A stretch of 64,000 nt of DNA from an uncultured Gammaproteobacteria bacterium (GTDB lineage Bacteria > Patescibacteriota > Microgenomatia > Levybacterales > GWA1-39-11), in contig CAZHDZ010000001.1 of NCBI GenBank assembly GCA_964531275.1, positions 144,945 to 208,944 of the forward strand, read 5' to 3'. Shown in pieces: positions 5,418 through 23,171 of the stretch. Within the stretch, counting starts at the first letter, position 1. Every line of letters begins with the position of its first letter. The notes beneath the pieces are model-generated. The model had not been told where the DNA came from, did no database searches, and worked only from the letters and a program-made list of their open reading frames with translations. A program made the translations under genes and the position numbers.

Positions 5418-5483
5418 AATTAAACTCTAGCATATGAGCTTTTCTTGTGCAATATTGATAGAATATAAAAAAGGATAGAAAGT

Positions 5484-6548: not shown

Positions 6549-8770
6549 AAAAGTTCAAAAAGATATTGTTTCCACTATTTCTCTTAATAGTTATAGCTTT
6601 TTTTTATGCACCCTTTCTGTTGTTTGGAAAGATTCCAATTCCTGCAGATACGTTAGTGGGTCTATACCATCCATACAGAGATTTTTATAGTCGGGAATAT
6701 CCTCGAGGTATCCCTTTTAAAAATTTCTTAATAACAGATCCTGTAAGACAAACATATATTTGGAAAGAACTTTCTATAGATCTTTTGAAAAGGTTGGAAA
6801 TGCCATTATGGAATCCATACGAGATGGCCGGCAAGCCTTTGGCGGGTAACATTCAGTCTTCCCCATACTACCCGTTGAATGTAGTATTCGCCATTTTACC
6901 TATGAGTATAGGATGGGGGGTTTTTATTTTTTCCCAGACAATCCTAAGTAGTATCTTTACGTATCTCTACCTGAGGAATTTGAAACTGAACAATGCCGCC
7001 TCAGCTTTCGGAGCTATAGCATTCTCTTTTAGTGGTTTTGTTGTCGCTTGGTTGACATGGGGAAATGTGGTGCACACAGCGTTATGGTTGCCTCTCGTGC
7101 TTTTGGGTATCGATAAGATAACTTCAAATAGTAAGTATAAAAAAGCATGGATTTTCCTTTTAGCATTTGGATTGTCTAGTGCTCTTTTAGCCGGACATAC
7201 TCAAACATTTTTATACATATTCTTTCTTTCTTTTCTTTATTTTTTACTCAGATGGCGGAAGAACGCAAAGAACTTTATTATTTACATATTAATTTGCTTG
7301 GGTGTGGGAATAGTTACGTTTATTCAGTGGTATCCTTCGTTGATGTTCTTGGCTAACTCCGCAAGGGGAACAGATCGACAATTTCTTGACGTTGAAGGAT
7401 GGTTCATTCCTTGGAAACATCTAGTTCAATTTTTATCACCTGACTTCTTTGGTAATCCAGCCACACTTAACTACTTTGGAATTTTTAATTACGCAGAATT
7501 TGTCGGATATATAGGGGTCTTGCCGATTCTATTTGCATTTCTCGCATTGGTAAAAAGGAATAATACAATTAATTTTTTTGTTGGTGTAGTCTTGTTTTGT
7601 CTTGTTTTTAGTTTGCCTACTGGATTGTCCTCCATTCCGTATCTTTTATCAGTTCCTATTATTTCAAGTTTGCAGCCGACACGTTTGATTTTTTTGATCT
7701 GTTTTGGATTGTCAATCTTATCAGCTTATGGTCTTAACACAATCATGCATGAGAAGTTACGAATCAAAAATCTTCTCTTTCCAGCAATATTTCTAGCTTT
7801 TTGTTATGTGACGCTATTGCTATTTGCAATTTTTCCAAACTCTTCTTTCTTCGAACATGCCCAGCAGGCAAAGATTGCTTTAAGAAATTTAGTTCTTCCT
7901 CTCGCTTTATTTCTTATGGGTGTTGTCTGTATATTTTCTATTGTCTTAATTAAGAATCGTAATATAAAAATGTTTCTCGTTATTGTCTTATTTGCTCTTA
8001 CATCATTTGATCTTACTCGGTTCGCCCAAAAATTCACCCCATTTACATCAAGTGCATATCTGTATCCATCAACAAAAACACTAGAATTTTTAAAGTCAAA
8101 ACAAAATATATTTAGAGTAGCTGTTATGGATCGAAGAATTCTTGCACCAAACTTTTTAACACACTATAAAATACAGACAATTGAGGGTTACGATCCACTA
8201 TATTTGAATGCTTATGCTGAATTTATTGCTTCTCTTGAGAGAGATAAACCTGATATACAACCACCTTTTGGATTTAACAGAATTATTACACCGCATAACT
8301 ACAATTCTCAGATGTTTGATTTTCTTAATACAGAATACGTTTTGTCCTTAGATTCCATTGATTCACCAAAGCTTAAAAAAGTTTTTGAAGAAGGAGAGAC
8401 TAAGATTTATAAAAATTTGGGAGCATATCCACGTGCATTTTTTGTAAAAGATGTTTCCAGTGCTAACAATTCAATAAGACAAATATATAGCAGTGATCTG
8501 AAAAGCACGGCAATCGTTGAAGGTCTTGGCTCAATGACAAATCTAGCTATTGGAGAAGCGAGGATAACTCATTATTCGGAAAGCAGAATTGAAATAAGTA
8601 CGTACAACAAGGGAAATGGATTTTTAGTTATTTCAGACTCATTTTATCCCACATGGAAAGTCTACATAGATGGCAGGAAGACTACGTTATACAAAACAAA
8701 CCACGCATTTAGAGGGGTATATATTCCTGCGGGTAATCACACTATACTATTTAAAGATGGCTTACTGTAA
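6542..8770 (+). CDS. YfhO-family membrane glycosyltransferase-like protein
   Basis: 742 aa. The loop motif is PLWNPYEMAGKPLAGNIQSSPYYP. The C-terminus is SDSFYPTWKVYIDGRKTTLYKTNHAFRGVYIPAGNHTILF. It is a paralog of the ORF at 2072..4423. Confidence 0.7.
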   Translation: MVEKFKKILFPLFLLIVIAFFYAPFLLFGKIPIPADTLVGLYHPYRDFYSREYPRGIPFKNFLITDPVRQTYIWKELSIDLLKRLEMPLWNPYEMAGKPLAGNIQSSPYYPLNVVFAILPMSIGWGVFIFSQTILSSIFTYLYLRNLKLNNAASAFGAIAFSFSGFVVAWLTWGNVVHTALWLPLVLLGIDKITSNSKYKKAWIFLLAFGLSSALLAGHTQTFLYIFFLSFLYFLLRWRKNAKNFIIYILICLGVGIVTFIQWYPSLMFLANSARGTDRQFLDVEGWFIPWKHLVQFLSPDFFGNPATLNYFGIFNYAEFVGYIGVLPILFAFLALVKRNNTINFFVGVVLFCLVFSLPTGLSSIPYLLSVPIISSLQPTRLIFLICFGLSILSAYGLNTIMHEKLRIKNLLFPAIFLAFCYVTLLLFAIFPNSSFFEHAQQAKIALRNLVLPLALFLMGVVCIFSIVLIKNRNIKMFLVIVLFALTSFDLTRFAQKFTPFTSSAYLYPSTKTLEFLKSKQNIFRVAVMDRRILAPNFLTHYKIQTIEGYDPLYLNAYAEFIASLERDKPDIQPPFGFNRIITPHNYNSQMFDFLNTEYVLSLDSIDSPKLKKVFEEGETKIYKNLGAYPRAFFVKDVSSANNSIRQIYSSDLKSTAIVEGLGSMTNLAIGEARITHYSESRIEISTYNKGNGFLVISDSFYPTWKVYIDGRKTTLYKTNHAFRGVYIPAGNHTILFKDGLL

Positions 8771-8772: not shown

Positions 8773-9705
8773 ATGGAAGTTGATATTGTAATACCAAACT
8801 ATAACGGAGCTCATTTATTTGAAAAAAACCTACCCAAGGTTCTAGAGGCTCACGATGGGTATAAGGGCAAAATTATTGTTGTTGATGATGGTTCAAAAAA
8901 AGAGGACAAGCAAAGACTTAGGGAAGTTATAGCAGTGATAAAAAGTAATAAGCTAATTCTAGTAGAACATCATCTCAACAAAGGCTTTTCATCAGCCATA
9001 AATACTGGAGTGCATAAATCCGAAGCAAAGTTTGTTGTGCTTTTGAATAGTGATGTTGTTCCTAAGAAAAATTTCCTATTAGCATTACTTGAAAAAATGA
9101 ATTCAGACTCACTGTATTTTGGTGTAGGGTGTCTCGACGAAAGCTATGAGGGTGGAAAAATTGTAAAACGGGGTCGTGGCGTTGGCTCATGGAAGAGTGG
9201 TATGGTTGTTCACAGTAAAGGAGATGAGAGTAGTGAAGAGACATTTTGGATATCTGGTGGTAGTTGTATCTTAAGGCGTGAACTATTTGTAAAACTTGGA
9301 GGGATGGATACGTTATTTAACCCATTCTATTGGGAGGATATAGATCTCTCGTATAGGGCAGTAAAATCTGGATATAAGATATCATTTGATAAGAAATCAG
9401 TTGTAGAACACTATCACAATGAGGGTGCAATAATAACAGGCTTTAAAAAAGAGCGAATAACTCGTGCTGCATATCGAAATCAGTTCATATTTATATGGAA
9501 AAATATCACATCCCCAAATCTGCTTGCAAATCATATTTTGCTTCTTCCAATTAATATGGCAAGAGCATTAAAGAGAAGTGATTTAGAATTTTTTAATGGA
9601 TTATTCCTTGCCCTGATTAAGTTACCTGCTATAATTAAAAGACGTAAGATGCAGCAGAAATTCTACCAACGTTCTGATGCCCAGCTCTTACATAGCATCA
9701 CATGA
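8773..9705 (+). CDS. Glycosyltransferase family 2
   Basis: The sequence contains VDIVIPNYNGAHLFEKNLPKVLEA...IIVVDDGSKKED and FYWEDIDLSYR. Confidence 0.8.
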   Translation: MEVDIVIPNYNGAHLFEKNLPKVLEAHDGYKGKIIVVDDGSKKEDKQRLREVIAVIKSNKLILVEHHLNKGFSSAINTGVHKSEAKFVVLLNSDVVPKKNFLLALLEKMNSDSLYFGVGCLDESYEGGKIVKRGRGVGSWKSGMVVHSKGDESSEETFWISGGSCILRRELFVKLGGMDTLFNPFYWEDIDLSYRAVKSGYKISFDKKSVVEHYHNEGAIITGFKKERITRAAYRNQFIFIWKNITSPNLLANHILLLPINMARALKRSDLEFFNGLFLALIKLPAIIKRRKMQQKFYQRSDAQLLHSIT

Positions 9706-10430
9706 ATTCATCTAAAAAACTTCTTTCTATTGTCATTCCCGTATATAACGAAGAAAAAACAATAGGTATAGTCCTTGATAAGTTGCACAAACTACAAATT
9801 CCAAAACTTGAGGTTGAAATTGTCGTTGTCGATGATGGTTCAAAGGATAACTCTGCAAAAATTATTACTGAAAAAAAGAAAAAGATAGCAAATATCCATT
9901 TTATTCAGCACAAAGTTAACCAAGGAAAAGGTGCGGCGGTTATTACCGGATTTAATAACGCAAAGGGTTCCGTGCTTTTGATACAGGATGCAGATCTTGA
10001 GTATAATCCTGAAGAAATACCTATGCTTCTTGAACCAATTCTGAAAGGTATAGAAAAAGTTGTGTATGGAACTCGGTTGAGACGCAATTTTTCACTTTTT
10101 GGTAAGGAAAGAACCCCGCTCCCATTTCACTTTATTGGGAATAAATTTCTAAGCCTGGCCACAACAGTTCTTTATGGGGAAAGTATTACTGATATGGAAA
10201 CCGGCTATAAACTATTTTTAAAATCTGCACTTGATGGGATTAGTCTTAAGTCGAGATCTTTTGATTTTGAGCCTGAAATCACAGCGAAAATCTTGAAAAA
10301 AGGTATACACATCCTAGAGCTTGATATAACGACGAATCCGCGAGGTTATGATGAAGGGAAGAAAATAAGACCGGTTCACGATGGAACGATCGCACTTTGG
10401 ACACTTATTAAGTATAGATTTACTTCATGA
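9702..10430 (+). CDS. GT2 polyprenyl-phosphate sugar synthase (Dpm1/GtrB/CsbB-like, short form without C-terminal TM helices)
   Basis: The sequence contains LSIVIPVYNEEKTIGIVLDKL...VVDDGSKDNS...LLIQDADLEYNPEEIPMLLEPI, a Dpm1-like architecture. It is embedded among YfhO-like and GT-C genes. Confidence 0.7.
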   Translation: MNSSKKLLSIVIPVYNEEKTIGIVLDKLHKLQIPKLEVEIVVVDDGSKDNSAKIITEKKKKIANIHFIQHKVNQGKGAAVITGFNNAKGSVLLIQDADLEYNPEEIPMLLEPILKGIEKVVYGTRLRRNFSLFGKERTPLPFHFIGNKFLSLATTVLYGESITDMETGYKLFLKSALDGISLKSRSFDFEPEITAKILKKGIHILELDITTNPRGYDEGKKIRPVHDGTIALWTLIKYRFTS

Positions 10431-11662
10431 AAACCCAGCGCTTTTCGCTATCAAGCGTTATTTTGGCAGCACTCATTGTCCCCGTGATAATGACGTATCA
10501 AATTTTTCCAGGAGATACTAATTATATTCAATTTGGCCTTATTTTTGCCGGAATATTTTTGAACTTCCTAATCGACATAGTACCCTTTCAAGAAAAAAGA
10601 TACTATTTCATAAAGTATGTTTTATTCTGGACAATCCTTTTCCTTGCAGTAGGTGGGGCATTTATATCGGCAGTTATGGTGCGTCACAAGGTTGCACCTC
10701 TTTTTCAAATTCACGACATCATATTGCAACTTGAAGCTGCAATCCGTTTCTTTTTAGACGGAATTAACCCTTGGGCTGCAACGTATCACAACACTTTTAT
10801 GGCTCAATGGCACTATAGTGATACGGCTATTAATCCCGCACTCTATCATTTTGTAATGATGCCGTTTTATCTCCTTTTTTCACTACCTTTTTATTTTGTT
10901 TCTAACCACACAATTGGCTATTTTGATGGCCGTATTCCTCTATTTTTCCTATACCTGTCTCTTTGTATAAGTGCCTTTTACTTCATAAAGGACAAAGAGC
11001 AAAAGCTTATTGCGACAACTCTTCTTGCGCTAAATCCTGCAATGTTTGCATACACCTTAGAGGGTAGAAGCGATGTTTTTATGTTCGCATTTTTCTTCGT
11101 TGCCATGATTATGCTTTCAAGAAAGAATTTTCTACTGGCAGGTTTGCTTCTTGCACTTGCATTTACAGTGAAGCAGTCCATATGGCCATTTATTCCACTC
11201 TATATAGCCTATGTATATTTTGTTTCAGCAAGCCTACGATCTACAATAACAAGACTAAGTCCATTCTTTGTTTTATTCGCTATTCTGGTAGCCCCTTTTT
11301 TCCTATGGAATCCTAGCGCTTTTCTGAACAGTACGGTTTTTTACCTTTCAGGCAATACGCAACACAGCTACCCAATTTCCGGCTATGGATTAGGGATGGT
11401 TCTGTATCAACTTGGATTTATTAAAGATCTTAATGGGACGTATCCCTTTATCATATGGCAGGTACTATTTGTGGCTCCTCTCTTAGTCGTTCTCCTTCGC
11501 TTTTTAAAAAAACACCCACAAGTTAAAACACTCATATTTACTTATGGCATATTAGTTTTTGTTTATTGGTATACCTCACGTTACTTTAATAATAGTCATG
11601 TTGGTTATTTAACTATGGTATTTCTTACAGCGTATTTATGGCCAGATCGTCATGAAAAATAG
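10427..11662 (+). CDS. Polytopic membrane protein, probable GT-C-type glycosyltransferase (family uncertain, GT87/DUF2029-like size and topology)
   Basis: 411 aa with about 11 hydrophobic segments. It is ATGA-coupled to the upstream Dpm1-like GT2. Confidence 0.5.
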   Translation: MKTQRFSLSSVILAALIVPVIMTYQIFPGDTNYIQFGLIFAGIFLNFLIDIVPFQEKRYYFIKYVLFWTILFLAVGGAFISAVMVRHKVAPLFQIHDIILQLEAAIRFFLDGINPWAATYHNTFMAQWHYSDTAINPALYHFVMMPFYLLFSLPFYFVSNHTIGYFDGRIPLFFLYLSLCISAFYFIKDKEQKLIATTLLALNPAMFAYTLEGRSDVFMFAFFFVAMIMLSRKNFLLAGLLLALAFTVKQSIWPFIPLYIAYVYFVSASLRSTITRLSPFFVLFAILVAPFFLWNPSAFLNSTVFYLSGNTQHSYPISGYGLGMVLYQLGFIKDLNGTYPFIIWQVLFVAPLLVVLLRFLKKHPQVKTLIFTYGILVFVYWYTSRYFNNSHVGYLTMVFLTAYLWPDRHEK

Positions 11663-11664: not shown

Positions 11665-13644
11665 ATGCACAATTTACTCTCTTTTGAATTTATTTTCTTT
11701 TTTATTTATTCCTTCATTGCAATTTTTCTTGCTGTTTTTATACCTGGAGCCGTTACTCTTCGTATTTCTAAATTCAATCTACCTCCCATTGCGTCATTTG
11801 TCTCTTCAATTGTCGTTGGGACAGCTTTATGGGTGCTCATAGGATTTGTTCTTGGCTTTTTGAATATCCGTTTTTTAACGTACCCCTACATACTAGTTGC
11901 AGTACTGTACTGGTTAACTACAAATGGCAAACTGAAAAAACCAAAATTGCACCTAACAGCGCCCAAATATCTCATTATCGGCTTGATCATCGTCGGATCA
12001 CTAATGCAAATGTCTTTTGGGATATTTATGGGCGCAACCGATCCGAAAGGACTTTCCTTTTGTTGCATCGATGCTAGTGATAATTTATATTTTCTTTCTT
12101 TAAGCCGAGAACTTATTCACAATATCCCTCCAACTGAACCAGGATTGGCAGGCGTAGTAGTTAACAACTATCACTATTTGTCCAATGTATTTATCGCTGA
12201 TTTAAGTAGAATTTTTTTCATTCCAGTAAATATTTTGCAATACCAAGTCTCAGCGGTTTATCTTCCTATTCTTTTAGGGCTTGGTGTTCTAGCTTTTTCT
12301 TTAAGTATTACTAAAAAATTGCGTTATGCATTTTGGTTACTCTTTTTTATCTACTTTGGAGGGGACTTTATTTGGTTGCTTATGATAATTCTCCAAAAAG
12401 GAACTAACTTTTTCAGCATGAGCTCCCTTGAAGACGGTGCAAAATTCCTAAGTAATCCTCCTCGCTCTTTTGCAACTATACAATTATTTGGAGCACTTAC
12501 ATTATTCATGTATTGGCTTGTCAAAGATAGAAATATTAAAAAAGCGGTTGTTATTGGCATAGTATTTGGAACTCTTGTAGGGTTCAAGGTATATATCGGG
12601 ATATTTGCAATGATGGGTCTTGGAGCTCTCTCTATTTGGTGGATATTCAAGAAGGAATATTGGAGATTAATTCTTCCCTTTGTGTCTGTTATTGTTGTTA
12701 TGACAGTCTATTTACCGGTGAATGTTGGCGCAGGGGGGCTATATTTTACCTCGTTTTGGTTTTTTGAAAACTTTATTGTACAGCCATACCTTCAACTTGA
12801 AAGGTTAGAATTAGCTCGAAGAATATTTTTGGATGACAACAAGCAAGTTAAAGCCCTTGCTTTCGAATTGCTATATGTTGCTATTGTAGTATTCGCGTTA
12901 TTTGGAACTAAGTTGATAGGTTTTATCCAGTCAAGAAAAAGTATTAAATTATTACCCCTAGAGTTGCATATCCTACTTATTGCTGGAATTATTCCAAGTA
13001 TCATAGTCGGATTTTTCTTCCAACAAACCTCTGGAGGTTCTAACACCTTTAACTTTTTAGTAAATGTATTTGTTTTTGGGAGTATTTACACCGCAGCAAC
13101 TGCATTCTGGCTAACTTCTTATAGAAAAAGCTTCACAATATTTGTTGTAATTTTTATTGTGGGGCTTACTATTCCTAGGGTGGTTTTTGAAACAAAGCAA
13201 AATATTAAAAGACTTGCTACACACCAAGTAATGACATTTAGTCACAATCAACTGAATGCTTTTCAATTTCTTAAAAAACAAGAAAAGGGACTTGTAGTTG
13301 TAGATCATACTTATTTTGGGCTTGATAGGACAAGTCCACTTATCGCTTATTTTACAGAACAGCCAATGTTTTTATCTGGTATTCAAATCCTTGAGAGTCA
13401 TAATATTAAGGTAGGCAAGCGCTTAAGAGTTTATGAAACAATTCTTAATGGTTCAGATATAGCTTCAGCAAAAGCTTTAAAAAGTAATAATATTACGTAT
13501 CTTATTCTTGGCATAACAACCCAGCTTTCTGCAACCCACTCAGCTCAGTTCCTAGATACTATTTATAAAAATAGGGAAGTGAGAGTGCTTAAGGCCAACA
13601 GGCAAAAAATTGATATTATATTAAGTGATAGATCAATGAGATGA
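11665..13644 (+). CDS. Polytopic membrane protein with a soluble C-terminal domain, GT-C-like (family uncertain)
   Basis: 659 aa. The N-terminal roughly 480 aa are highly hydrophobic. It lies in the coupled gene chain. Confidence 0.5.
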   Translation: MHNLLSFEFIFFFIYSFIAIFLAVFIPGAVTLRISKFNLPPIASFVSSIVVGTALWVLIGFVLGFLNIRFLTYPYILVAVLYWLTTNGKLKKPKLHLTAPKYLIIGLIIVGSLMQMSFGIFMGATDPKGLSFCCIDASDNLYFLSLSRELIHNIPPTEPGLAGVVVNNYHYLSNVFIADLSRIFFIPVNILQYQVSAVYLPILLGLGVLAFSLSITKKLRYAFWLLFFIYFGGDFIWLLMIILQKGTNFFSMSSLEDGAKFLSNPPRSFATIQLFGALTLFMYWLVKDRNIKKAVVIGIVFGTLVGFKVYIGIFAMMGLGALSIWWIFKKEYWRLILPFVSVIVVMTVYLPVNVGAGGLYFTSFWFFENFIVQPYLQLERLELARRIFLDDNKQVKALAFELLYVAIVVFALFGTKLIGFIQSRKSIKLLPLELHILLIAGIIPSIIVGFFFQQTSGGSNTFNFLVNVFVFGSIYTAATAFWLTSYRKSFTIFVVIFIVGLTIPRVVFETKQNIKRLATHQVMTFSHNQLNAFQFLKKQEKGLVVVDHTYFGLDRTSPLIAYFTEQPMFLSGIQILESHNIKVGKRLRVYETILNGSDIASAKALKSNNITYLILGITTQLSATHSAQFLDTIYKNREVRVLKANRQKIDIILSDRSMR

Positions 13645-15263
13645 AAAAATACATACGACACAAAACATTAATTCTTTTTGGAATTGTTCTTATAGCCGCT
13701 TTTTTCAGGTTGTTCAGTCTCTCTACTAACCCACCATCACTTACCTGGGATGAGGTTTCCTGGGGCTACAACGCATATTCGTTGGGGATTGATGGCCGTG
13801 ATGAATTTGGAAAATTCTTGCCCATAACATATCTTGAATCCTTTGGAGACTTTAAGCCTCCACTATACGCATATCTTGACATTCTGCCAGTCAAAATCCT
13901 GGGCATGAGCGAATTGGCAGTAAGATTGCCATCAGCTTTTGCTGGTATTTTGACTGTAGCCCTTACATACTTGCTTGTCGTTCAAATATTTGGCCGAGAA
14001 AAAGAGAAAGAAGCATTCGTAGCAGCTTTTATAGTTGCTATCTCGCCATGGCACATAATGCTTTCCCGAGCGGCTTTTGAAGCAAATGTTTCAACCGCTT
14101 TGATTGTATTGGGACTATACTTATTCTTAAAAAGCAAGAATGACAAGATCATACTGTTGCCCTTTTCAGTAGTTTCGTTCGTTGCTTCTTTGTACACATT
14201 TAATTCGGCTAGGGTGATAGTCCCAATTATAGTTATTGTTCTTGCAATTGTATTCTATAGATTTTTATTGAAAAATTTAGTAATTGCATGTGTTTCCGCA
14301 TTGCTTGGTTTCTTACTTTTTCTCCCTCTTTTTATATTCCTTCAGTCTCCTCAGGCAAAATTGCGTTTTGATGAAGTGAATATTTTTTCAGATATTAACG
14401 TTATTAATAGAACAAATCAAGAGATTGCAAATGACGATAACTCAGCATTTTCAAAGGTGATTCACAATAGAAGATTTGCTTATGGAGTAGAATACTTAGG
14501 CCATTATTTTGACAATCTCACTCCAAAATTTCTTTTCTTTAGCGGGGATGGAAATCCTAAATTTTCAATTCAGGACGTGGGGCAGGTTTATTTATGGGAA
14601 GCTCCTTTTCTGCTCCTTGGAGTCTTGTTATTATTTAGACAAAGGCGAAAGTACTGGTGGATAGTTCCCTTCATGATTGTAGTGGCAATTGTTCCCGCAG
14701 GATTTGCTCGCGAAACACCACACGCGTTAAGGACGGAAAGTGTAGTCCCTTTTTTACAAATAGTAACAGCAATCGGTGTTTGTGCCTTTATAGATTGGTT
14801 TAGAGGAAAAATACAAATCTTTTCAAAAGTATGCCTAACTCTTGTTATATTTATTTCCCTAATGTACTTTGCTCACAATCTTTTCTTCCATTACCCAAAA
14901 GAATATTCGGGTGAATGGCAATATGGATATAAAGAGTCTTTGGAGTATGTGAAAGGTCAACAAAATAATTACCAAAAGGTATATATAACAGAAGCTTTGG
15001 GTAGGCCGTATGTTTATGCACTTTTTTACTTAAAATATAGTCCACAAAAATTTCGCCAAGAAGCAAATATTTACAGAGAGGCATTAGGTTTTGTCCATGT
15101 AAGAAGTTTTTCGAATATTTATTTTGAAGAAGAGATTGAGAAGGTAAATACACAGAATTCTCTTTATCTTGCACAACCAGACAGTGTCCCTGTAAGTGGT
15201 AAAATTCTTAAAGAATTCAAATTATTAAATGGCAAGACTATACTTGTTGCCTACTCTTTATGA
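13641..15263 (+). CDS. Lipid-carrier-dependent protein/glycan glycosyltransferase, PMT/ArnT superfamily (GT39/GT83)
   Basis: The first loop is LTWDEVSWGYNAYSLGIDGRDEFGKFLPI...GDFKPPLYAYL, carrying the DE and KPPL signatures of PMT/ArnT. It has many TM helices and is a paralog of 15260 and 19747. Confidence 0.75.
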   Translation: MKKYIRHKTLILFGIVLIAAFFRLFSLSTNPPSLTWDEVSWGYNAYSLGIDGRDEFGKFLPITYLESFGDFKPPLYAYLDILPVKILGMSELAVRLPSAFAGILTVALTYLLVVQIFGREKEKEAFVAAFIVAISPWHIMLSRAAFEANVSTALIVLGLYLFLKSKNDKIILLPFSVVSFVASLYTFNSARVIVPIIVIVLAIVFYRFLLKNLVIACVSALLGFLLFLPLFIFLQSPQAKLRFDEVNIFSDINVINRTNQEIANDDNSAFSKVIHNRRFAYGVEYLGHYFDNLTPKFLFFSGDGNPKFSIQDVGQVYLWEAPFLLLGVLLLFRQRRKYWWIVPFMIVVAIVPAGFARETPHALRTESVVPFLQIVTAIGVCAFIDWFRGKIQIFSKVCLTLVIFISLMYFAHNLFFHYPKEYSGEWQYGYKESLEYVKGQQNNYQKVYITEALGRPYVYALFYLKYSPQKFRQEANIYREALGFVHVRSFSNIYFEEEIEKVNTQNSLYLAQPDSVPVSGKILKEFKLLNGKTILVAYSL

Positions 15264-16945
15264 TTATAAAATTTTTACAAAAACCTTTATTTATACTTTT
15301 TATAATTCTTGCCCTAGCAAGTTTTTTGCGACTATATGACCTGGGGCGCACTCCTGCAAGTCTTAACTGGGATGAAGTTGCTCTTGGGTATAACGCGAAG
15401 TCAATTCTTGAGACCGGAAAAGATGAATATGGAGAATTATTACCAGTAGTATTGAGATCCTATGATGACTACAAACCTGCACTCTATTCATACTTTGACA
15501 TACCATTTGTAGGAGTTCTTGGCTTAACGGAGGTTGCAGTAAGACTGCCTTCAGCAATTGCCGGAATAATAGCGGTTTTTCTCGTATATTTTGTAGTCAA
15601 GCAGCTTTTAGGTGAGAAGAGAATAGTCATTGGTACTATTGAGATAAATTCCTACTGGGTTGCGCTTTTAGCTTCATTCCTGCTTGCTATTTCACCGTGG
15701 CACATTCAGTTTAGTCGAATTGCATTCGAGTCAAATGTAGGTCTTACGCTAAATATAGCTGCCTTTTACCTCTTCTTAAAAGGCTTAAAGAAAGGTATAT
15801 ATCTTCCCTTCTCTTTTGCTCTTGCGGCTTTAAATTTACATATGTATCAAAGCGATAGAGTTTTTTCTCCATTGTTAATAATCGTACTGTCGATCATTTT
15901 TTATAAAACAATATTTAAGAAAAAGAAGATGTTAGTTGTCTCTCTTCTTGCAGCATTTGTAATAGCTCTACCGCTTATTTTCTACATACTAACAAACAGT
16001 AATGCTTTGATGAGGGCAAAGGGAGTAAGTGTTTTTTCAGAACAGTCAGTTGTAAAAAGATCCTCAGAAAAACTCTTGAGAGATTCCCAATCAAATAATG
16101 TCCTTGGGAAAGTCTTTGACAACAGACGCGTTGAATACATCAAAGCAGTCTCATACGGATATTTATCGCATTTTGATCTCAATTGGTTATTTATAACTGG
16201 AGATATAGCACGTCACCACGCCCCATTTATGGGGCTTTTGTATATTTTTGAATTTCCTTTGCTTCTTATTGGTGTATATACGTTAATTTTCTTAAAAATT
16301 GAAAAAAAATATAAGGCAGCCTTTTTTGCTTATTTTTTGTTAGTTCCTATTCCAGCGTCAATAACTAGTGGTGTGCCTCATGCAGTGAGGACATTAAATT
16401 ATGTATGGACTTATGAGTTAATGATCGCATTAGGTATTGTTGCATGTATAGTATTTATTCTCACTCAAAAACAAAAAATAATTCGGCATTCCCTAGTCGC
16501 TCTATCCTTTTTGTTTTGCGTTCTGGCGGTGTTAAATGTTCTTTATTATTTAAATCAATACTTTGTTCAGTTGGATTATTATTATGCTAGGGATTGGCTT
16601 TATGGATATAAGCAGGCAATTGCCTATACAGAAGAAAATGCAGGCAAGTATGACAAGATCATTGTCGAAAATGAAACCCCTTTCGACCAATCATATATGT
16701 TCTTTCTTTTTTACTTAAATATGGATCCTGGTGAATATCAAAAGCTCGGAGGAACCGCAAGCGGCGGATGGAAAGAAAAGCATAAAGGTTTTGGTAAATA
16801 TACCTTTGAACCCATCAAAGACGCAAAATATGACGGGAAAGTTTTGTATATAGGGGAGCCTTCTGATATGCCAAATGGCTCAAAGATTAAAAAGAATATA
16901 TTGCTTCCTGATGGTTCAGTTGGGGTTACTATATCTGAATCATGA
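15260..16945 (+). CDS. PMT/ArnT superfamily GT-C glycosyltransferase
   Basis: The first loop is LNWDEVALGYNAKSILETGKDEYGELLPVVLRSYDDYKPALYSYF. It is a tandem paralog of 13641. Confidence 0.75.
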   Translation: MIIKFLQKPLFILFIILALASFLRLYDLGRTPASLNWDEVALGYNAKSILETGKDEYGELLPVVLRSYDDYKPALYSYFDIPFVGVLGLTEVAVRLPSAIAGIIAVFLVYFVVKQLLGEKRIVIGTIEINSYWVALLASFLLAISPWHIQFSRIAFESNVGLTLNIAAFYLFLKGLKKGIYLPFSFALAALNLHMYQSDRVFSPLLIIVLSIIFYKTIFKKKKMLVVSLLAAFVIALPLIFYILTNSNALMRAKGVSVFSEQSVVKRSSEKLLRDSQSNNVLGKVFDNRRVEYIKAVSYGYLSHFDLNWLFITGDIARHHAPFMGLLYIFEFPLLLIGVYTLIFLKIEKKYKAAFFAYFLLVPIPASITSGVPHAVRTLNYVWTYELMIALGIVACIVFILTQKQKIIRHSLVALSFLFCVLAVLNVLYYLNQYFVQLDYYYARDWLYGYKQAIAYTEENAGKYDKIIVENETPFDQSYMFFLFYLNMDPGEYQKLGGTASGGWKEKHKGFGKYTFEPIKDAKYDGKVLYIGEPSDMPNGSKIKKNILLPDGSVGVTISES

Positions 16946-18471
16946 ATAAAAAACTGACAAAGCTTATTATTCCCATTGCTCTAGGTCTCTTAATACTTCT
17001 TGGGATTTTTTCAAGGAGCGTAGAAGTTATTAATGGAAATTATATCTTCGGTTTTGATCACGGAAGGGATTATCTCCTGGCACGGGAAATAGCACACGAT
17101 CATAACCTTCGTCTGATTGGAACTCCTTTGGGGGCAGGTAGCGCGGGTATACAGGGTATTTTTCATGGACCGGGATACTATTACATTCTTGCGATATTCT
17201 ATATTCTGTTTGGCGCAGATCCATACGGTGGTGTTGTGGCGATGTTATTATTCGGCGTCGCGGCAATAATTGCTAGCTACTTATTAGGGAAAAGGCTATT
17301 TGGAAGTCTAGGTGGGTTATTGGTTGCAACTTTCATTGCTTTGTCTCCGCCGCTCATTTCTCAGTCTAGGTCTATTTGGAATTCACACCCAACGACTGTT
17401 TTTATTGTTCTTACCTTTTTATTCATATACGCGTCTCTAAAGGACAATAAGCATAGAGCCTTGTATGCATTTCTTGCAGCCTTCTTTGCTGGATTTACTT
17501 ATAATTTTGAGTTTGCTGTGGGAATACCTCTGACAATTGCTCTTCTTTTGTATTCAATTTTCATGTACAAAACCAAACTTATAAAATATTTGCCTATAGT
17601 AGGGGGGAGCATCATTGCCTATGCACCTATGGTTATTTTTGAAATAAAACATAAGTTCATGGCAATAAGTGGATTGTTGTCTTATTTAGGGAATCCACAA
17701 AAGAGCAAAAGTGAGCTTTCATTCGTTGAAAATAACATCGATCACGCACACTCATTCCTTTTTAATTTTGTAGACTCTTTTCCTAGGCAATCTACATTTC
17801 CTGGTCCAATAATTCTAGCTGTTTTTATTCTCGGATTTATTTTAGTGATACGAAGAGAAAAGAATAAGGATCTGAAAAGCTTTTTTATCTTTTTGGCGAG
17901 CTTGCCGTTGGTTTCTTTTGCAATATTTTCTCTATTGAGAAATGCTGTCTACCATTATTATTTGGTTCATCTTAACGTAGCCTATATACTTCTTGCTGTT
18001 TTTATCATTTTTGGATGTTTTCGAAATTTTAAAAATAAGTTTGTACAGATTGCTATTGTTGTTATTCTAGTCTTTTTTGGGCTTAATGCAGTTGGAACAT
18101 ATACAAAAATGATTTCATACGATTTGTATGATTACGGTGGAGACGCAAAAATACAAGGAAAACTCGACGCAATTAATTACGTATACAATGATGCAGAATC
18201 TAATGATTTTGGGGTTTTAGTATTCTCACCACCGGTTTATATATATCCATACGAATATTTATTCTTGTGGAAAGGTAAAAGTCAGTATGGTTATATGCCA
18301 CCGTTTGAAAAAAAGAAGATAACATATCTCATTATTGAGGTTGACCCGGCAAAGCCCTGGTCATATAAAGGATGGCTTGAAACTGTTATAAAGGATGGGA
18401 AGGTGTTACAGACTACTACGAGAAAAAGCGGTTTAATCATCCAAAAAAGATATTATGAAGAAAAAAACTAA
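16942..18471 (+). CDS. ArnT-like GT-C membrane glycosyltransferase
   Basis: The N-terminal loop reads FGFDHGRDYLLAREIAHD...PGYYYILAIFYILFG. It is polytopic and 509 aa. Confidence 0.6.
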   Translation: MNKKLTKLIIPIALGLLILLGIFSRSVEVINGNYIFGFDHGRDYLLAREIAHDHNLRLIGTPLGAGSAGIQGIFHGPGYYYILAIFYILFGADPYGGVVAMLLFGVAAIIASYLLGKRLFGSLGGLLVATFIALSPPLISQSRSIWNSHPTTVFIVLTFLFIYASLKDNKHRALYAFLAAFFAGFTYNFEFAVGIPLTIALLLYSIFMYKTKLIKYLPIVGGSIIAYAPMVIFEIKHKFMAISGLLSYLGNPQKSKSELSFVENNIDHAHSFLFNFVDSFPRQSTFPGPIILAVFILGFILVIRREKNKDLKSFFIFLASLPLVSFAIFSLLRNAVYHYYLVHLNVAYILLAVFIIFGCFRNFKNKFVQIAIVVILVFFGLNAVGTYTKMISYDLYDYGGDAKIQGKLDAINYVYNDAESNDFGVLVFSPPVYIYPYEYLFLWKGKSQYGYMPPFEKKKITYLIIEVDPAKPWSYKGWLETVIKDGKVLQTTTRKSGLIIQKRYYEEKN

Positions 18472-19732
18472 TAATATGATTAATAGATTATTCTCAAGTA
18501 GGATTTACCTCATCTTTTTTGCGTTACTTCTTACGGTACTGATAGTAACACGTTTTATAATGCCTGAATCAAAGAGTGGATTTGGATACGATCAGGTTGA
18601 TAACGCTTGGGCTGCAAAAGATATATTAATTGACGGAAAATTACCTCTTACTGGAATGCAGGCTAAAGGTAATACCGGATTCTATATTGGACCTCTTTAT
18701 TACTATTTCCTAGTTCCTTTTTACTTTCTAACTGGAATGGACCCGATTGCTTCGGCAATCGCAGCCCTAGTTGTTGCGATTTTTTCATTTTTTGTTGCTT
18801 ACTTTGTAACCAAAAGTATATTTGGCGAGAAAGCAGCTGTAATTGCAGCTTTTATTACAACATTTTCTTCCTACGTTTTGATTTTAGATCGTGTCCAGTG
18901 GCCGGTTAATTTTATTGTTCCGATATCATTTATTGTCTTTTTATGTGTTTATAAGATTTGCAATGGTAGTGTGAAGTATTTAATTCCGCTTTCAGTAGCG
19001 CTTGGATTTTCTCTTCATATTCATTTCACGTCTGTTTTCTATTTTATAATAATGATTCTTGCTATTCCTTTTTTTCCGCGAAAAAAAGAGCTAATAAAAC
19101 CATTAGTTATATCAATTGGAGTATTCATTCTTTTTGTCTCCCCAATTATTCTTAATTATGCTATTACGCGGCAGGCCACTACTGCATCTTCTTATTTAGG
19201 AAGTACTTTTCATGGTTTTCATATGCGGAGAGTGTTGCAGCTTCTGAAAGATGCTGTTATAGAATTTAATTCGATATTAACAATTCCTTATTCTCATTTT
19301 GCATCTTTTCTAATAGTTCCTCTATCTTTTTACCTTCTTCTTAAGGAAAAGTTATCACGAGAGAACATTATCTTGGTTTATTTATTTATACTTTGGTTAA
19401 TCATTCCATGGTTCGCTTTTTCTACATACTCCGGCGAGTTGACAAACTATTATTTTGCTCTCACAAGACCAGTCGCGATTTTAATAATTTCATATCTTTT
19501 TATGAGGCTGATTAATACTAGGAAAAACTACATATATGTTATTCTTGGAGTTGTGGCTATAGCATACATATATATAAATTTAGGTATCTTTAATGATCAA
19601 AGGCCGCAAAGTTTGTCAATGTATAGAAAGATTGTTAGTGACAAAATCTCAAGAGGGGAGAAAATTGAATTTGTTCAAGGAGACCCTCAATCTTACTTAT
19701 ATTATTTCTATACTACGATACAGAAGCAATAA
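18455..19732 (+). CDS. ArnT-like GT-C membrane glycosyltransferase
   Basis: The N-terminal loop reads GFGYDQVDNAWAAKDILIDGKLPLTG...GFYIGPLYYYFLVPFYF. It is polytopic. An alternative start is at 18476, just after the upstream stop. Confidence 0.55.
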   Translation: MKKKTNNMINRLFSSRIYLIFFALLLTVLIVTRFIMPESKSGFGYDQVDNAWAAKDILIDGKLPLTGMQAKGNTGFYIGPLYYYFLVPFYFLTGMDPIASAIAALVVAIFSFFVAYFVTKSIFGEKAAVIAAFITTFSSYVLILDRVQWPVNFIVPISFIVFLCVYKICNGSVKYLIPLSVALGFSLHIHFTSVFYFIIMILAIPFFPRKKELIKPLVISIGVFILFVSPIILNYAITRQATTASSYLGSTFHGFHMRRVLQLLKDAVIEFNSILTIPYSHFASFLIVPLSFYLLLKEKLSRENIILVYLFILWLIIPWFAFSTYSGELTNYYFALTRPVAILIISYLFMRLINTRKNYIYVILGVVAIAYIYINLGIFNDQRPQSLSMYRKIVSDKISRGEKIEFVQGDPQSYLYYFYTTIQKQ

Positions 19733-19746
19733 ATGTATATCTAAAG

Positions 19747-21387
19747 ATGTATAAAAAAACTGTCATATTTTTTTTGTTCCTTATTATTGCACTTGGGTTT
19801 TTCTTTAGAGTGTATAAGATCAATGAAATACCACCTCATCCATCTTTAGATGAGGCAACAATAGGTTATAACGCTTATTCAATACTAATTACTGGTAAAG
19901 ATGAATTCAAAACTCCCTTTCCCATATTGCTAAGAGCATATGACGATTACAGACCTGCCTTATACGTATATTTAGTTATTCCGTTTGTAAAAATATTAGG
20001 TCTTACAGTTGAGGCCGTTCGGTTGCCATCAGTGATTTTGTCGACAATTTCACTCCTTTCTTTCTATATTGTCGCTCGTAGAATTTTTAAGAAATTGGGT
20101 GTGGTGCGACCTGAGGCACTCTCGCTTCTACCAGTCTTTCTTATGAGCATTTCACCTTGGCACATCTATATTTCTCGACTGGGCCATGAGGTAAATGCCT
20201 TTCAAGCATTCTTTATTATTGGCCTAGGATTCTTTTTGAATTCTATTAAGAAAGAAACCGTTAACTTGAAGCATTTAATTTTTGCAGCAATTTTTCTTGG
20301 ATTGTCATTTGATGCCTATCAAAGTGGGAAAGTGTTTATTCCATTATTCCTTCTGCTTTTATTTATTTGGTACTTCAATTTGATTAAGAAGAATTGGAAA
20401 AAATTTGCATTAGCATCTGCAATAGGATTCGTGGTTATTCTGCCAATTCTCGTAGTTTCGTTTCAGCCTGAAGCTCTAATTCGTTTTAAGGCCACCAGCG
20501 TCTTTAATGTTCCTTTCGAGGTTGGTTACGAAAATGCCCAAAAACTGGTGGAATTTAGGAAAAATAATGACTACCTCAATATAGTTCTTTTTAATAGGAA
20601 TGTAGTACCCATAACTAATTTTATAAAATCTTTTCTCTCGCATTTTTCTTATGATTTCTTATACCGAAGCGTGGAAAATGCACAATTTAGAATTCCTGGC
20701 TTTGGACTTTTATATTTATTAGAGTTACCATTGCTTATTGGAGGTATTTTACTATTTGTCGTAAAGAGAAAATGGAAATGGATGTTGTTTCTTTTTCTTT
20801 GGTACGTAATTGGAATCCTTCCAAGCGCTTTGACTACGGACGCCCCCCAGCCTATGAGGGCGTTTGCCGCAATTGGCGCGGTTATGCTTCTTGCAGGTGC
20901 TAGTCTGGGACTTGTTAAGCGCTATACAAAAAAGAACAAGGTCTTTATGGTGGGATTGGCCTCTTTTTTCTGCTTGATTGCAACAATTAGTATTTCTCAG
21001 TTCTATATTTCTTATTTCAATGTTTTCCCTAAAAAATATTCAAACCAATTCCAATACGGAGTCATACAGTCGTTTGAATATCTAGATAGCCTTAATAAGC
21101 GACCCGCAAAAATTTACGTATCAAATACAAGAAATCTTGCTGCGAGTTATATGTTCTATCTTTTCTATAAAAAATATGACCCTATCAAGTATCAGAAAGA
21201 AGGGGGCTCGGTTTCGGGTTGGTTCAACTATGATCATAAGATTGATAACCTTTATTTTACAAATCCAGCCAACACACAAGAAGGTGCCCTATTGGTTGTA
21301 TCTTCAGGCGAATACACGTCAGGTAGAGTGTTGGCCGAAATCAAGGATTTAGACGGTAATACAGCTATACAAATTGTCGAGAAGTAG
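19747..21387 (+). CDS. PMT/ArnT superfamily GT-C glycosyltransferase
   Basis: The first loop is PSLDEATIGYNAYSILITGKDEFKTPFPILLRAYDDYRPALYVYL. It is the third copy of the family found at 13641 and 15260. Confidence 0.75.
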   Translation: MYKKTVIFFLFLIIALGFFFRVYKINEIPPHPSLDEATIGYNAYSILITGKDEFKTPFPILLRAYDDYRPALYVYLVIPFVKILGLTVEAVRLPSVILSTISLLSFYIVARRIFKKLGVVRPEALSLLPVFLMSISPWHIYISRLGHEVNAFQAFFIIGLGFFLNSIKKETVNLKHLIFAAIFLGLSFDAYQSGKVFIPLFLLLLFIWYFNLIKKNWKKFALASAIGFVVILPILVVSFQPEALIRFKATSVFNVPFEVGYENAQKLVEFRKNNDYLNIVLFNRNVVPITNFIKSFLSHFSYDFLYRSVENAQFRIPGFGLLYLLELPLLIGGILLFVVKRKWKWMLFLFLWYVIGILPSALTTDAPQPMRAFAAIGAVMLLAGASLGLVKRYTKKNKVFMVGLASFFCLIATISISQFYISYFNVFPKKYSNQFQYGVIQSFEYLDSLNKRPAKIYVSNTRNLAASYMFYLFYKKYDPIKYQKEGGSVSGWFNYDHKIDNLYFTNPANTQEGALLVVSSGEYTSGRVLAEIKDLDGNTAIQIVEK

Positions 21388-21415: not shown

Positions 21416-22195
21416 ATGAAAAAAATATCAGTAGTTCTTGCTACATTTAACGAAGAAGAGAATTTGCCAAGATGTTTGGATTCTGTAAAAAATTTAGCAA
21501 GCGAAATAGTTATCGTAGATGGTACTTCTAAGGATAAAACAGTCGAAATAGCTAGGTCATATGGCGCTAATGTTCATGTCACGACAAACCCTCCAAATTT
21601 TCACATAAATAAGCAAAAGGCAATCGATTACGCTACAGGAGACTGGATATTACAAATGGATGCTGATGAAGTTGTTTCTGAGGAGCTTTCTTCAGAAATA
21701 AAAAAAGTTGTAGCAAAAGACCCACAAGAAAATGGTTACTGGATGCCGAGGAAGAATTATTTTTTAGGAAGATTTCTTTTAAAGGGTGGCCAATATCCTG
21801 ATTATACGGTTAGATTATATAAAAAAGGGCTAGGATATCTCCCGCAAAAAGATGTACATGAGCAGGCAGTTATTGAAGGCAAGGTGGGTTATCTAAAAGA
21901 AGCCTTATTGCATTACCCATATAAAGACTTTGCTTTTTATTGTAAAAAGTGGATGCGATACAATCATCTTCTTGCTATGCAAATCAATGAAGATCTAAAG
22001 AAGAAGAATTTTATTTTGAAAATAATTTTAGGAATTGGGTATACACTTGCAAAACCAGCTCACTGGATGTTAACGGCATATGGAAGACACAAAGGTTTTA
22101 TGGATGGATGGCAAGGATTCGTTTTTGCCCTAATGTCAGCGCTTCGATTTCCCGTGTCATATATACTATACTTAAGAAAGGACTTTAGAAATTAG
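21416..22195 (+). CDS. Glycosyltransferase family 2 (small, WaaE-like)
   Basis: The N-terminus reads ISVVLATFNEEENLPRCLDSVKNLASEIVIVDGTSKDKT, followed by QMDADE. It is a paralog of 4420..5175. Confidence 0.8.
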   Translation: MKKISVVLATFNEEENLPRCLDSVKNLASEIVIVDGTSKDKTVEIARSYGANVHVTTNPPNFHINKQKAIDYATGDWILQMDADEVVSEELSSEIKKVVAKDPQENGYWMPRKNYFLGRFLLKGGQYPDYTVRLYKKGLGYLPQKDVHEQAVIEGKVGYLKEALLHYPYKDFAFYCKKWMRYNHLLAMQINEDLKKKNFILKIILGIGYTLAKPAHWMLTAYGRHKGFMDGWQGFVFALMSALRFPVSYILYLRKDFRN

Positions 22196-22196: not shown

Positions 22197-23171
22197 ATGG
22201 ATAAAAAAATATTAGTCACAGGAGGGGCAGGGTATATTGGTAGCTTTATGACACGAGCGCTTCTTAACAAAGGATATCAAGTTATTGTTCTTGATAGTCT
22301 TGAAAGGGGCAATCAAGATGTAATTCCCGAAAATGTAGCTTTTTATCAAGGCAAAGTCGGTGATCGTGAACTTCTTCACAAAATATTTCAAGAGAACCCA
22401 TTTGAGGCAGTCATACATTTCGCTGCTTATATTTCCATGAAAGAATCTATGGAAAATCCTGGCCTTTATTTTGAACAGAACACTCATCAAACGCAAATGC
22501 TACTAGATATCTTGCATGAATTAGGAGTCAAAAATATAATCTTTTCTTCAACTGCAGGAGTCTATGGTAATCCTGAAAGAGTACCTATACGGGAAGATGA
22601 CCGCAAAGATCCTACTAATCCTTATGGAGAAAGTAAATTAATGGTGGAAAAAATGCTTGCTTGGCATAATAAAATTTATGGTCTTAATTATGCTGTCTTA
22701 AGGTATTTTAATGCTTGTGGTGCATTATCTGATGGTAGCTTGGGCGAAAGGCACACTCCCGAAACGCATATAATTCCAATAGCTCTAAAATCCGCAAGGG
22801 AAGGTCAAGATTTTGTAATATATGGAAATAACTACAATACTCCTGATGGGACCTGCGTGCGAGACTACATCCACGTTCTAGATCTTGCAGAGGCACATTT
22901 ATTAGCTCTTGAAAAAATAATGGAGCAACCTGGAGGGTATACATATAATGTAGGCACAGGAAAGGGACACAGCAATAAAGAGGTGGCAAGCACAATTCAG
23001 GAAGTAACGGGACTTGCGCTTACAATTCGATTTGAAGACAGAAGACCCGGAGATGCCGATGAGCTAGTTGCAGATGTAAGTAGAATAAAAGACGAACTTC
23101 ACTTCGAGCCCAAATACTCCGACCTCCCAACTATTATCAGGAGTGCATTTGCGTGGCACAGTAATAATTAA
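22197..23171 (+). CDS. galE: UDP-glucose 4-epimerase
   Basis: The sequence contains KILVTGGAGYIGSFMTRALLNKGYQVIVLD and the catalytic YGESK (YxxxK). The overall length (324 aa) and motif order match GalE. Confidence 0.85.
   Translation: MDKKILVTGGAGYIGSFMTRALLNKGYQVIVLDSLERGNQDVIPENVAFYQGKVGDRELLHKIFQENPFEAVIHFAAYISMKESMENPGLYFEQNTHQTQMLLDILHELGVKNIIFSSTAGVYGNPERVPIREDDRKDPTNPYGESKLMVEKMLAWHNKIYGLNYAVLRYFNACGALSDGSLGERHTPETHIIPIALKSAREGQDFVIYGNNYNTPDGTCVRDYIHVLDLAEAHLLALEKIMEQPGGYTYNVGTGKGHSNKEVASTIQEVTGLALTIRFEDRRPGDADELVADVSRIKDELHFEPKYSDLPTIIRSAFAWHSNN

Follow-up and report, generated by a model that had tools for sequence, protein, structure and literature searches.

A tandem array of PMT_2-type GT-C glycosyltransferase genes in a glycan-biosynthesis island of Levybacteria

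Organization of the array

The 64,000-nucleotide stretch of DNA analysed here in full (the window; positions 144,945 to 208,944 of contig CAZHDZ010000001.1, assembly GCA_964531275.1, placed in Levybacterales of Patescibacteriota) carries at 13641-21387, on the + strand, five consecutive genes for polytopic membrane proteins related to GT-C glycosyltransferases, designated G1 to G5 in their order along the DNA, and a more distant relative, G6, far downstream (Table 1). An earlier reading made from the letters of the DNA without database searches (the sequence-only reading) had described the five genes as a tandem array of the protein O-mannosyltransferase (PMT)/ArnT superfamily, with a sixth member at 53509. 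All five open reading frames (ORFs) are present, the peptides it had quoted (LTWDEVSWGYNAYS, LNWDEVALGYNAKS, PSLDEATIGYNAYS, DFKPPLYAYL and DYKPALYSYF) are all found in the translations, and the array of back-to-back homologues is confirmed as real. The sixth member was likewise recovered, with Pfam PMT_2 and PMT matches and a 94.3% probability of homology to the G1 family (hhalign). Its longest ORF spans 53398-54981 and opens at a TTG at 53398; the likely start is the internal ATG at 53509, which gives an 8-nt overlap with the preceding gene. ATGA overlaps of 4 nt chain the genes from GT2b (9702) to G3, and GT2b through G3, linked in this way, are one operon.

In blastp comparisons, G1, G2 and G5 were 30-34% identical to one another over their full length (34% for G1-G2, E 3e-91; 30% for G1-G5, E 8e-62; 33% for G2-G5, E 1e-73), G3 and G4 were 26% identical (E 6e-13), and G4 matched G1 and G2 at E ~1e-9. 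Profile-profile comparison with hhalign, using family alignments made from related loci, linked G1 to G5 all pairwise at 96.5-100% probability (G3 with G1 at 98.3% and with G4 at 99.8%; G4 with G1-G3 and G5 at 96.5-99.8%). By these alignments the similarity among the array copies is judged to be far above chance, and G3 and G4 appear as a second, more diverged pair.

Family assignment and predicted fold

G1, G2, G3, G5 and G6 all score above the gathering threshold of Pfam PMT_2 (PF13231; 26.1 bits), with 38.8, 32.1, 39.3, 30.2 and 50.4 bits respectively (E 1.4e-9 for G1, 1e-9 for G3 and 3.3e-13 to 3.7e-13 for G6); G4, at 25.5 bits, falls slightly under it and is tied to the other copies by profile comparison. 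The PMT model (PF02366; threshold 22.7 bits) is passed by G1 (36.0 bits, E 7e-9) and G6 (46.8 bits, E 3e-12 to 3.6e-12), G2 remaining below it at 21.2 bits and G3, G4 and G5 giving no match, but it cannot separate PMT from ArnT, because ArnT matches the same model.

AlphaFold2 models of G1 and G3 (predicted local distance difference test, pLDDT, 87.0 and 87.2; predicted TM-score, pTM, 0.87 and 0.89, respectively) point to a GT-C fold in both, and G2, G4 and G5 are assigned to the GT-C(A) class through their hhalign probabilities of 96.5-100%. ArnT was the best match in the PDB by Foldseek for G1 (5EZM; E 2.5e-8, TM-score 0.54) and for G3 (5F15; E 1.1e-6, TM-score 0.57), followed by STT3, AglB and PglB, the catalytic subunits of oligosaccharyltransferases, and then by Pmt4, ALG9/ALG12 and Emb/Aft, and every match at probability 1.00 was a GT-C enzyme. 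Single-sequence phmmer searches against the PDB gave no match for G1 and only a spurious one, to EccD5, for G6. The proposed membership in the PMT/ArnT superfamily (Pfam PMT_2) is hence borne out by the Pfam matches and by ArnT as top Foldseek hit, and the predicted models carry the fold whose lack the sequence-only reading had named as evidence against it.

The C-terminal modules of the two known enzyme types were sought in G1-G6. PMT_4TMC (PF16192) had no match in any of the six at E<=0.01, in contrast to 58.8 bits (cutoff 32.4) for the positive control, Arthrobacter Pmt, and Arnt_C (PF18583) also had none in the six, although an ArnT-type control from Ralstonia gave 99.7 bits. Arnt_C is not universal in ArnT, since E. 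coli ArnT itself was not matched at E<=0.01. Because PMT_4TMC and Arnt_C are missing from G1-G6, an identity with canonical PMT or canonical ArnT was ruled out. No NCBIfam equivalog was matched by the six proteins; TIGR03663 (flippase activity-associated protein Agl23, archaeal and PMT_2-like) gave E-values of 1.4e-12 for G6, 1.2e-7 for G3 and 2.8e-5 for G1, at scores of 23-47 bits that are sub-threshold against the 126-bit cutoff.

Active-site motifs

The DE dyad and KPPL motif that the sequence-only reading had considered conserved throughout are so in G1, G2 and G5 (DE, K/R-P) but not in G3 (D-H, H-G-P), G4 (D-Q, I-G-P) or G6 ('WRQADT'). To place these residues, we aligned the families with a PMT profile made from an Arthrobacter Pmt ORF (with PMT and PMT_4TMC) and yeast ScPmt4, in which Arthrobacter VFDETYYVKDAYSYL and 'VHPPVGKWM' align with VFDEVHFGKFASYYL and 'VHPPFAKMM' of yeast Pmt4. 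The G1 family matched this profile at 95.7% (hhalign), with SLTWDEVSWGYNAYSLG on SLVFDETYYVKDAYSYL and D37-E38 on the PMT DE in confident columns, and with the G1 'FKPP' aligned onto the PMT 'VHPP'; in G2 (91.7%) and G5 (77%) the DE likewise fell on the PMT DE motif. The loop-1 helix pattern DE-x-x-aromatic-G-x-x-A-x-S/Y is shared with Arthrobacter Pmt and yeast Pmt4, again in confident columns. G3 (D-H/Q), G4 (D-Q) and G6 lack the PMT DE motif.

The ArnT references were E. coli ArnT (from the annotated K-12 genome), the 5EZM protein of Cupriavidus metallidurans and five ArnT-type proteins from plasmid or chromid records. The 5EZM sequence was read from a printed alignment with E. coli ArnT, and its chain indices 58-59 (D-E) and 87-88 (E-K) become D55-E56 and E84-K85 once a 3-residue tag is subtracted. 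A locus retrieved as C. metallidurans ArnT proved to be a paralogue of the 5EZM protein and was replaced by the 5EZM fragment. G1 matched the ArnT profile at 96.1% from K72 on (hhalign). Its KPP lysine lies at position 2 of the PMT_2 profile, the same as K61 of E. coli ArnT and K85 of C. metallidurans ArnT, and K72 was equated with K85 also by the profile match to 5EZM. At this position, that of the carrier-phosphate lysine in the E-K-P-P of ArnT, G1 and G2 have K and G5 has R, and the residue is lacking in G3 and G4. With the seven-sequence ArnT profile, the Asp of the G1, G2, G5 and G4 family profiles was in every case placed on D55. The suggestion that the DE dyad occupies the catalytic position of PMT and ArnT therefore stands for G1, G2 and G5, in confident columns for PMT and in low-confidence but consistent ones for ArnT; of the dyad, G3 and G4 retain the Asp alone.

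Conservation among orthologues is strict. D37, E38 and K72 are invariant in G1 (41/41), as are D, E and R in G5 (23 of 23); the G2 family keeps D and E in 41/41 and K in 39/41; all 33 G4 orthologues have D46-Q47, and in G3 D39 (25/25) is followed by Q or H, with D-Q as the family consensus. The Asp opens the first loop helix, just after the first transmembrane (TM) helix (H36-51 in G1, H38-53 in G3), so that all five families carry an invariant acidic residue in the first extracytoplasmic loop, as expected of GT-C enzymes. Conservation of the D, E and K (or R) in these alignments supports a probable function for them. As the putative catalytic Asp is present in 100% of the members of each paralogue family, the divergence among the copies fits the functional specialisation proposed by the sequence-only reading. 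With a PMT-like loop-1 helix, an ArnT-like K-P-P and a C-terminal alpha/beta domain of ~115 residues of their own, G1, G2 and G5 are a distinct branch of the PMT_2/GT-C(A) superfamily, neither canonical GT39 nor canonical GT83.

Distribution and synteny

Orthologues of G1 at 55-72% identity come from Candidatus Levybacteria, Microgenomates and Patescibacteria, and several are named 'glycosyltransferase family 39 protein' or 'phospholipid carrier-dependent glycosyltransferase' at NCBI. Among 1.84 billion representatives scanned, the G1-type family comprised 2,644 clusters at E<=1e-30 and 11,858 at E<=1e-3. A scan of species-representative genomes gave at least 569 loci, 80 of which were analysed. 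A G2 orthologue lies directly 3' of the G1 orthologue in 79/79 loci, at a modal spacing of -4 (the ATGA overlap), and past G2 there is a changing mix of G3-, G4-, G5- and PTPS_related-type GT-C genes. Contiguous PMT_2 runs range from 1 to 7 genes, and each locus (<=21.6 kb) has 1-9 PMT_2-type genes and up to 11 GT-C genes. G1 and G2 are thus a fixed core pair and the genes that follow a variable set.

In a neighbour-joining tree the G1, G2 and G5 orthologues form separate clades, G5 being sister to G2, besides at least three further paralogue clades. As each of these spans many species, the duplications are old, and a recent tandem duplication as the origin of the array was ruled out.

Flanking genes were counted over 81 loci, the counts being lower bounds in view of the many incomplete loci. 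GT2a (54-56/81) and GT2b (56-63/81) were found upstream of G1, and GT2c (at least 60-62/81; median identity 63.5%) and GalE (at least 48-49/81) downstream of the array. Bracketed by these conserved GT2 genes and GalE, the array is a section of a larger conserved cassette. One relative contains an MptA_B-family gene.

Many records of metagenome-assembled genomes with the Levybacteria-type cassette bear the title 'uncultured Gammaproteobacteria bacterium', and the titles of others name Eisenbacteria, Limnocylindrales or Cyanobacteria; such titles are probably placeholders or wrong.

Proposed function and alternative readings

We propose, with moderate confidence, that G1-G6 are polyprenyl-phosphate-sugar-dependent GT-C(A) transferases of a lineage-specific branch of the ArnT/PMT superfamily, acting at the outer face of the cytoplasmic membrane of the Levybacteria cell. 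By analogy with known systems, their acceptor is most likely an envelope glycopolymer or lipoglycan made or decorated outside the membrane, rather than Ser/Thr of proteins, a proposal to which we give about an even chance. In the scheme we envisage, the cytoplasmic enzyme GT2b would place a hexose from a UDP-sugar on polyprenyl phosphate, GalE providing the Glc/Gal interconversion for the donor; the lipid-linked sugar would be flipped across the membrane; and every GT-C paralogue would then move a single sugar onto its own acceptor position outside. The invariant loop-1 Asp (D37 in G1) would be the catalytic base and the K or R of the K-P-P motif would grip the carrier phosphate, as in ArnT, and the variable genes after G1-G2 would diversify the product. 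Such acceptors have parallels in those of the Emb/Aft/Mpt enzymes of mycobacteria or of three-component systems known from Gram-positive bacteria. A glycan acceptor is favoured by the number of paralogues, the GT87- and MptA_B-type neighbours, the polysaccharide-island context and the structural match to ArnT, which is the best over the whole chain and is an enzyme with a non-protein acceptor.

Several points weigh against this proposal. Although polyprenyl-phosphate-sugar synthases make up five of the top eight NCBIfam matches of GT2b (AglJ, 1e-33; ArnC, 8e-22; PgfS, Dol-P-hexose transferase and PpgS), the protein scores far under each equivalog cutoff. No GtrA/GtcA-type flippase was found by Pfam among the window ORFs of at least 150 residues, smaller ORFs not having been scanned individually. 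The loop-1 helix of G1, G2 and G5 is closer to PMT than to ArnT, and their DE is aligned with ArnT D55-E56 in low-confidence columns; with a two-sequence ArnT profile, the DE had fallen beyond the confidently aligned part, and extending the alignment by force had shifted it by 2 residues, a discrepancy settled by adding the five ArnT-type sequences and an authentic Pmt. A protein acceptor is quite possible, because streptococcal sets of GT2, epimerase and GT-C glycosylate proteins (PMC12041528). Finally, the catalytic roles are what we infer, and the donor sugar and acceptor purely so; what the analysis itself shows is homology, fold, equivalent and conserved active-site residues, the arrangement as an operon, and synteny.

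The most immediate alternative, plausible though somewhat unlikely in our view, is that G1, G2 and G5 are PMT-like protein O-glycosyl(mannosyl)transferases, which would transfer hexose from polyprenyl-phosphate-hexose to Ser/Thr in proteins that are secreted or exposed at the surface (for instance pilins, S-layer proteins or adhesins), with different paralogues for different substrates and G1-G2 perhaps as a heterodimer like Pmt1-Pmt2. Known PMTs (GT39; actinobacterial Pmt and yeast Pmt1/2/4; 6P25, 9E61, 9I5K) share with the array proteins the loop-1 DE and the helix that follows, aligned in confident columns with Arthrobacter Pmt and yeast Pmt4, as well as the Pfam PMT model, which G1 passes (36.0 vs 22.7) together with G6 and which ArnT matches too, and presumably a polyprenyl-phosphate-hexose donor made by a DPM1/Ppm1-like GT2. 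Yeast PMTs are diverged paralogues that pair up, and the strict G1-G2 linkage with its ATGA overlap would fit a heterodimer. The orthologues are already named family 39 at NCBI, and the grouping of GT2, GalE-type epimerase and GT-C genes parallels the streptococcal Pgf operon for protein O-glycosylation (PMC12041528). The array proteins differ from PMTs, however, in having neither the PMT_4TMC module, missing from all six and found in the Pmt control, nor a MIR domain, and in carrying K/R-P where PMTs have H-P-P. Structurally ArnT is the better match, the Foldseek alignment of G1 to PMT structures covering ~270 columns, and no Ser/Thr/Pro-rich candidate acceptor is encoded within the window. 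In bacteria whose PMTs are proven, a single copy is, to our knowledge, the rule, instead of 5-9. Hints on mannose transfer to protein Ser/Thr are confined to a ManC-like gene (59173-60258) and to the lack of any Ser/Thr-rich ORF in the window. Protein O-mannosylation, as the sequence-only reading had it, is not supported, given the missing PMT_4TMC, the K/R-P in place of H-P-P and the polysaccharide-type island.

An ArnT-like lipid modification, in which a (possibly amino-) sugar would pass from undecaprenyl phosphate to the head group of a glycolipid or lipid anchor and alter surface charge, is very unlikely. ArnT (GT83; 5EZM and 5F15, C. metallidurans) is the top structural match of G1 and G3 and has in common with the array proteins the GT-C(A) fold, Pfam PMT_2 and PMT, the K-P-P lysine (K72 on K85), the loop-1 D-E aligned with D55-E56 and an alpha/beta extracytoplasmic C-terminal domain past the last TM helix; GT2b matches ArnC, and two DegT/ArnB-class aminotransferases are encoded in the window. 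Yet identity to ArnT is 11-13%, the Arnt_C domain recognised in the Ralstonia control is absent, and ArnT is a single gene where the array and its relatives have five to nine tandem paralogues, which a single lipid target poorly explains. The context of the arn operon (ArnA, ArnB, ArnC, ArnD, ArnE/F), compared with that of E. coli, was not matched, since the window has only generic DegT aminotransferases and GT2 genes, and no ArnA-type formyltransferase/decarboxylase or ArnD-type deformylase was found by Pfam among its 47 ORFs of at least 150 residues. Bacteria of the Candidate Phyla Radiation (CPR) are, as far as we know, not known to make lipid A, and hence lipid A is implausible as acceptor here. 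It is highly improbable, too, that some of the proteins, G3, G4 and G6 especially, are non-transferase accessory subunits (flippase-associated or scaffold proteins like archaeal Agl23) serving catalytic G1, G2 and G5: these three have neither the Glu nor the K-P-P lysine, G4 is without the C-terminal soluble domain, G6, G3 and G1 have the sub-threshold Agl23 (TIGR03663) matches, and a dedicated GtrA-type flippase was not seen among the scanned ORFs, but the loop-1 Asp is invariant in the G3 (25/25) and G4 (33/33) families, which active GT-Cs would be expected to show, the TIGR03663 scores are far below the cutoff, and the G3 model is predicted to be a complete GT-C fold matching ArnT and ALG12.

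Comparison with known systems and significance

Besides ArnT and the PMTs, the proposed extracytoplasmic glycan transferases have two kinds of counterpart. In the mycobacterial cell envelope, EmbC-EmbA-EmbB, AftA-D, MptA/B/C and PimE are diverged GT-C paralogues, some of them in tandem, each of which adds one linkage to an envelope polysaccharide or lipoglycan from polyprenyl-phosphate-sugar donors. The likeness lies in the GT87-like gene beside the array and in the MptA_B-family gene of a relative; Emb/Aft structures are among the Foldseek matches with weak scores (E 0.01-0.3) and belong to different GT-C subfamilies, and Emb and AftD are much larger than the array proteins. Three-component extracytoplasmic systems have been described as GtrA/GtrB/GtrC, CsbB/GtcA/YfhO and, in streptococci, PgfS/PgfE/PgfM1 and GtrB/PgtC2 (PMC12041528, PMC8035078, PMC11127046). 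Shared with these are the logic of a GT2 lipid-phosphate-sugar synthase plus a GT-C, an epimerase as in Pgf, and the YfhO-type GT-Cs also encoded in the window. The array differs in that its GT-Cs are of the PMT_2 type, not YfhO or GtrC, in having many GT-Cs for one candidate synthase, and in that a small GtrA/GtcA-type flippase was not found among the scanned ORFs.

The envelopes of CPR bacteria (Patescibacteria), extremely small episymbionts most of which have not been cultured, have hardly been characterised. A search of the literature on GT-C or GT39 enzymes in CPR, Patescibacteria or Microgenomates found nothing relevant, and we did not find described a conserved Levybacteria cassette in which G1 and G2 are invariably paired and the GT-C genes behind them vary, a combination of PMT and ArnT motifs with a C-terminal domain peculiar to these proteins, or such a density of GT-C genes in a ~1-Mb genome; the type of enzyme, like its fold and overall chemistry, is well known, and public records name these proteins as GT39-family. 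For a ~1-Mb genome, an island of 64 kb that encodes at least 14 membrane glycosyltransferases, presumably dependent on lipid carriers, represents a considerable outlay, and its size together with the conservation of G1-G2 in 79/79 loci points to a surface glycoconjugate important for the lifestyle of these cells. A wider idea, tentative and on the whole unlikely, is that of a CPR-specific extracytoplasmic 'GT-C assembly line', in which an obligate G1-G2 pair, possibly a heterodimer like Pmt1-Pmt2, would work with up to ~10 further, rapidly reshuffled GT-Cs. If true, ~6% of the ~1-Mb genome would be devoted to a lineage-specific envelope glycoconjugate of Levybacteria, perhaps of Microgenomates, put together nearly all on the outer side of the membrane, and the variable part of the assembly line would give the cells diverse surfaces for attaching to a host or escaping phages. 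The mix of PMT and ArnT motifs with an own C-terminal domain in G1, G2 and G5 could also inform the evolution of acceptor specificity in GT-Cs. We regard the finding as a lead for CPR envelope biology, not as a new principle.

The surrounding glycan-biosynthesis island

The whole 64 kb is one glycan-biosynthesis island. Besides the genes in Table 1, it has more than 15 GT2/GT4 genes and acetyl- and methyltransferase genes together with the two aminotransferases, and 44 of its 47 ORFs of at least 150 residues are on the + strand. No gap without an assigned gene exceeds 450 nt; intergenic gaps of more than 280 nt occur only at 5176-5483, 41145-41461 and 44475-44758, and no Rfam family or tRNA was found in these or elsewhere in the window.

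Table 1. Genes of the array, its flanks and selected other genes of the island (coordinates within the window; aa, amino acids)
Gene	Coordinates	Strand	Length (aa)	Assignment and features
A	448-2094	+	548	PTPS_related / weak PMT_2 GT-C; hhalign 99% to B, 93% to G3
B	2072-4423	+	783	YfhO-family GT-C; Pfam YfhO 5.5e-16; 31% identical to C
C	6542-8770	+	742	YfhO-family GT-C; Pfam YfhO 3.7e-19; orthologues upstream of cassette in most loci
GT2a	8773-9705	+	310	GT2; conserved upstream partner of GT2b
GT2b	9702-10430	+	242	Pfam GT2 3e-34; candidate polyprenyl-phosphate-hexose synthase
D	10427-11662	+	411	Polytopic, weak GT87-like GT-C; Pfam GT87 2.2e-5, 24.8 bits vs 25 cutoff
E	11665-13644	+	659	~13 TM helices; directly upstream of G1, 4-nt ATGA overlap
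G1	13641-15263	+	540	GT-C glycosyltransferase (PMT_2/PMT); D37-E38, K72-P-P; C-terminal alpha/beta domain ~115 aa
G2	15260-16945	+	561	G1 paralogue; D38-E39, K72-P-A
G3	16942-18471	+	509	Divergent GT-C; D39-H40, F-H-G-P replacing KPP
G4	18455-19732	+	425	Divergent GT-C; D46-Q47, I-G-P; without C-terminal soluble domain
G5	19747-21387	+	546	G1/G2 paralogue; D35-E36, R69-P-A
GT2c	21416-22195	+	259	Pfam GT2 4.5e-23; closes array
GalE	22197-23171	+		UDP-glucose 4-epimerase; NCBIfam TIGR01179 397 bits vs 262 equivalog cutoff
Wzx-like	24229			Flippase
G6	53509-54981	+		Distant PMT_2/PMT-type GT-C; loop 'WRQADT', no DE
ManC-like	59173-60258			ManC-like gene
WbaP-type	60261			Phosphoglycosyl (initiating) transferase

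A gene of the A type often closes the array in relatives. D is related to the G5 family at 93.3% (hhalign), and its orthologues lie upstream of G1 in many loci. E has orthologues 36-72% identical in relatives, and had no match in Pfam, NCBIfam or the PDB, the search of the PDB with a profile of E being also empty.

GT-C-type genes number at least 14 in the window (those starting at 448, 2072, 6542 and 10427, G1-G6, and those at 35024, 37827, 41462 and 50331), the products of 35024, 37827 and 41462 and the C-terminal half of that of 50331 being joined to the superfamily by profile comparison. The gene at 50331-53516 (+) encodes 1061 residues with ~27 predicted TM segments and no Pfam match, and resembles two polytopic modules fused together. 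Residues 561-1061, the C-terminal half, are related at 89% to the product of 35024-37063 and at 82% to the G1 family (hhalign). The genes 37827-41144 (+) and 41462-43315 (+) are paralogous (hhalign 97.5%), and the N-terminal membrane module of their products is weakly like PTPS_related/YfhO GT-Cs. The 1105-residue protein of 37827-41144 has in addition a soluble region of ~650 residues and a C-terminal TM anchor, and its C-terminus resembles that of the YfhO-type B (blastp 2.9e-4).

At 29295-30797 (+) and 30800-32287 (-), two convergent genes encode paralogues of each other (37% identity, E 7e-114). These membrane proteins, with 9-11 TM helices, have no Pfam match and no profile link to the GT-C families and could be Wzy/ligase-like. 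The 177-residue ORF at 45669-46202 (+) corresponds to the N-terminal (Glyco_transf_4) half of a GT4 only, and may be truncated or split, since it runs right up to the membrane gene 46199-47782 on the minus strand.

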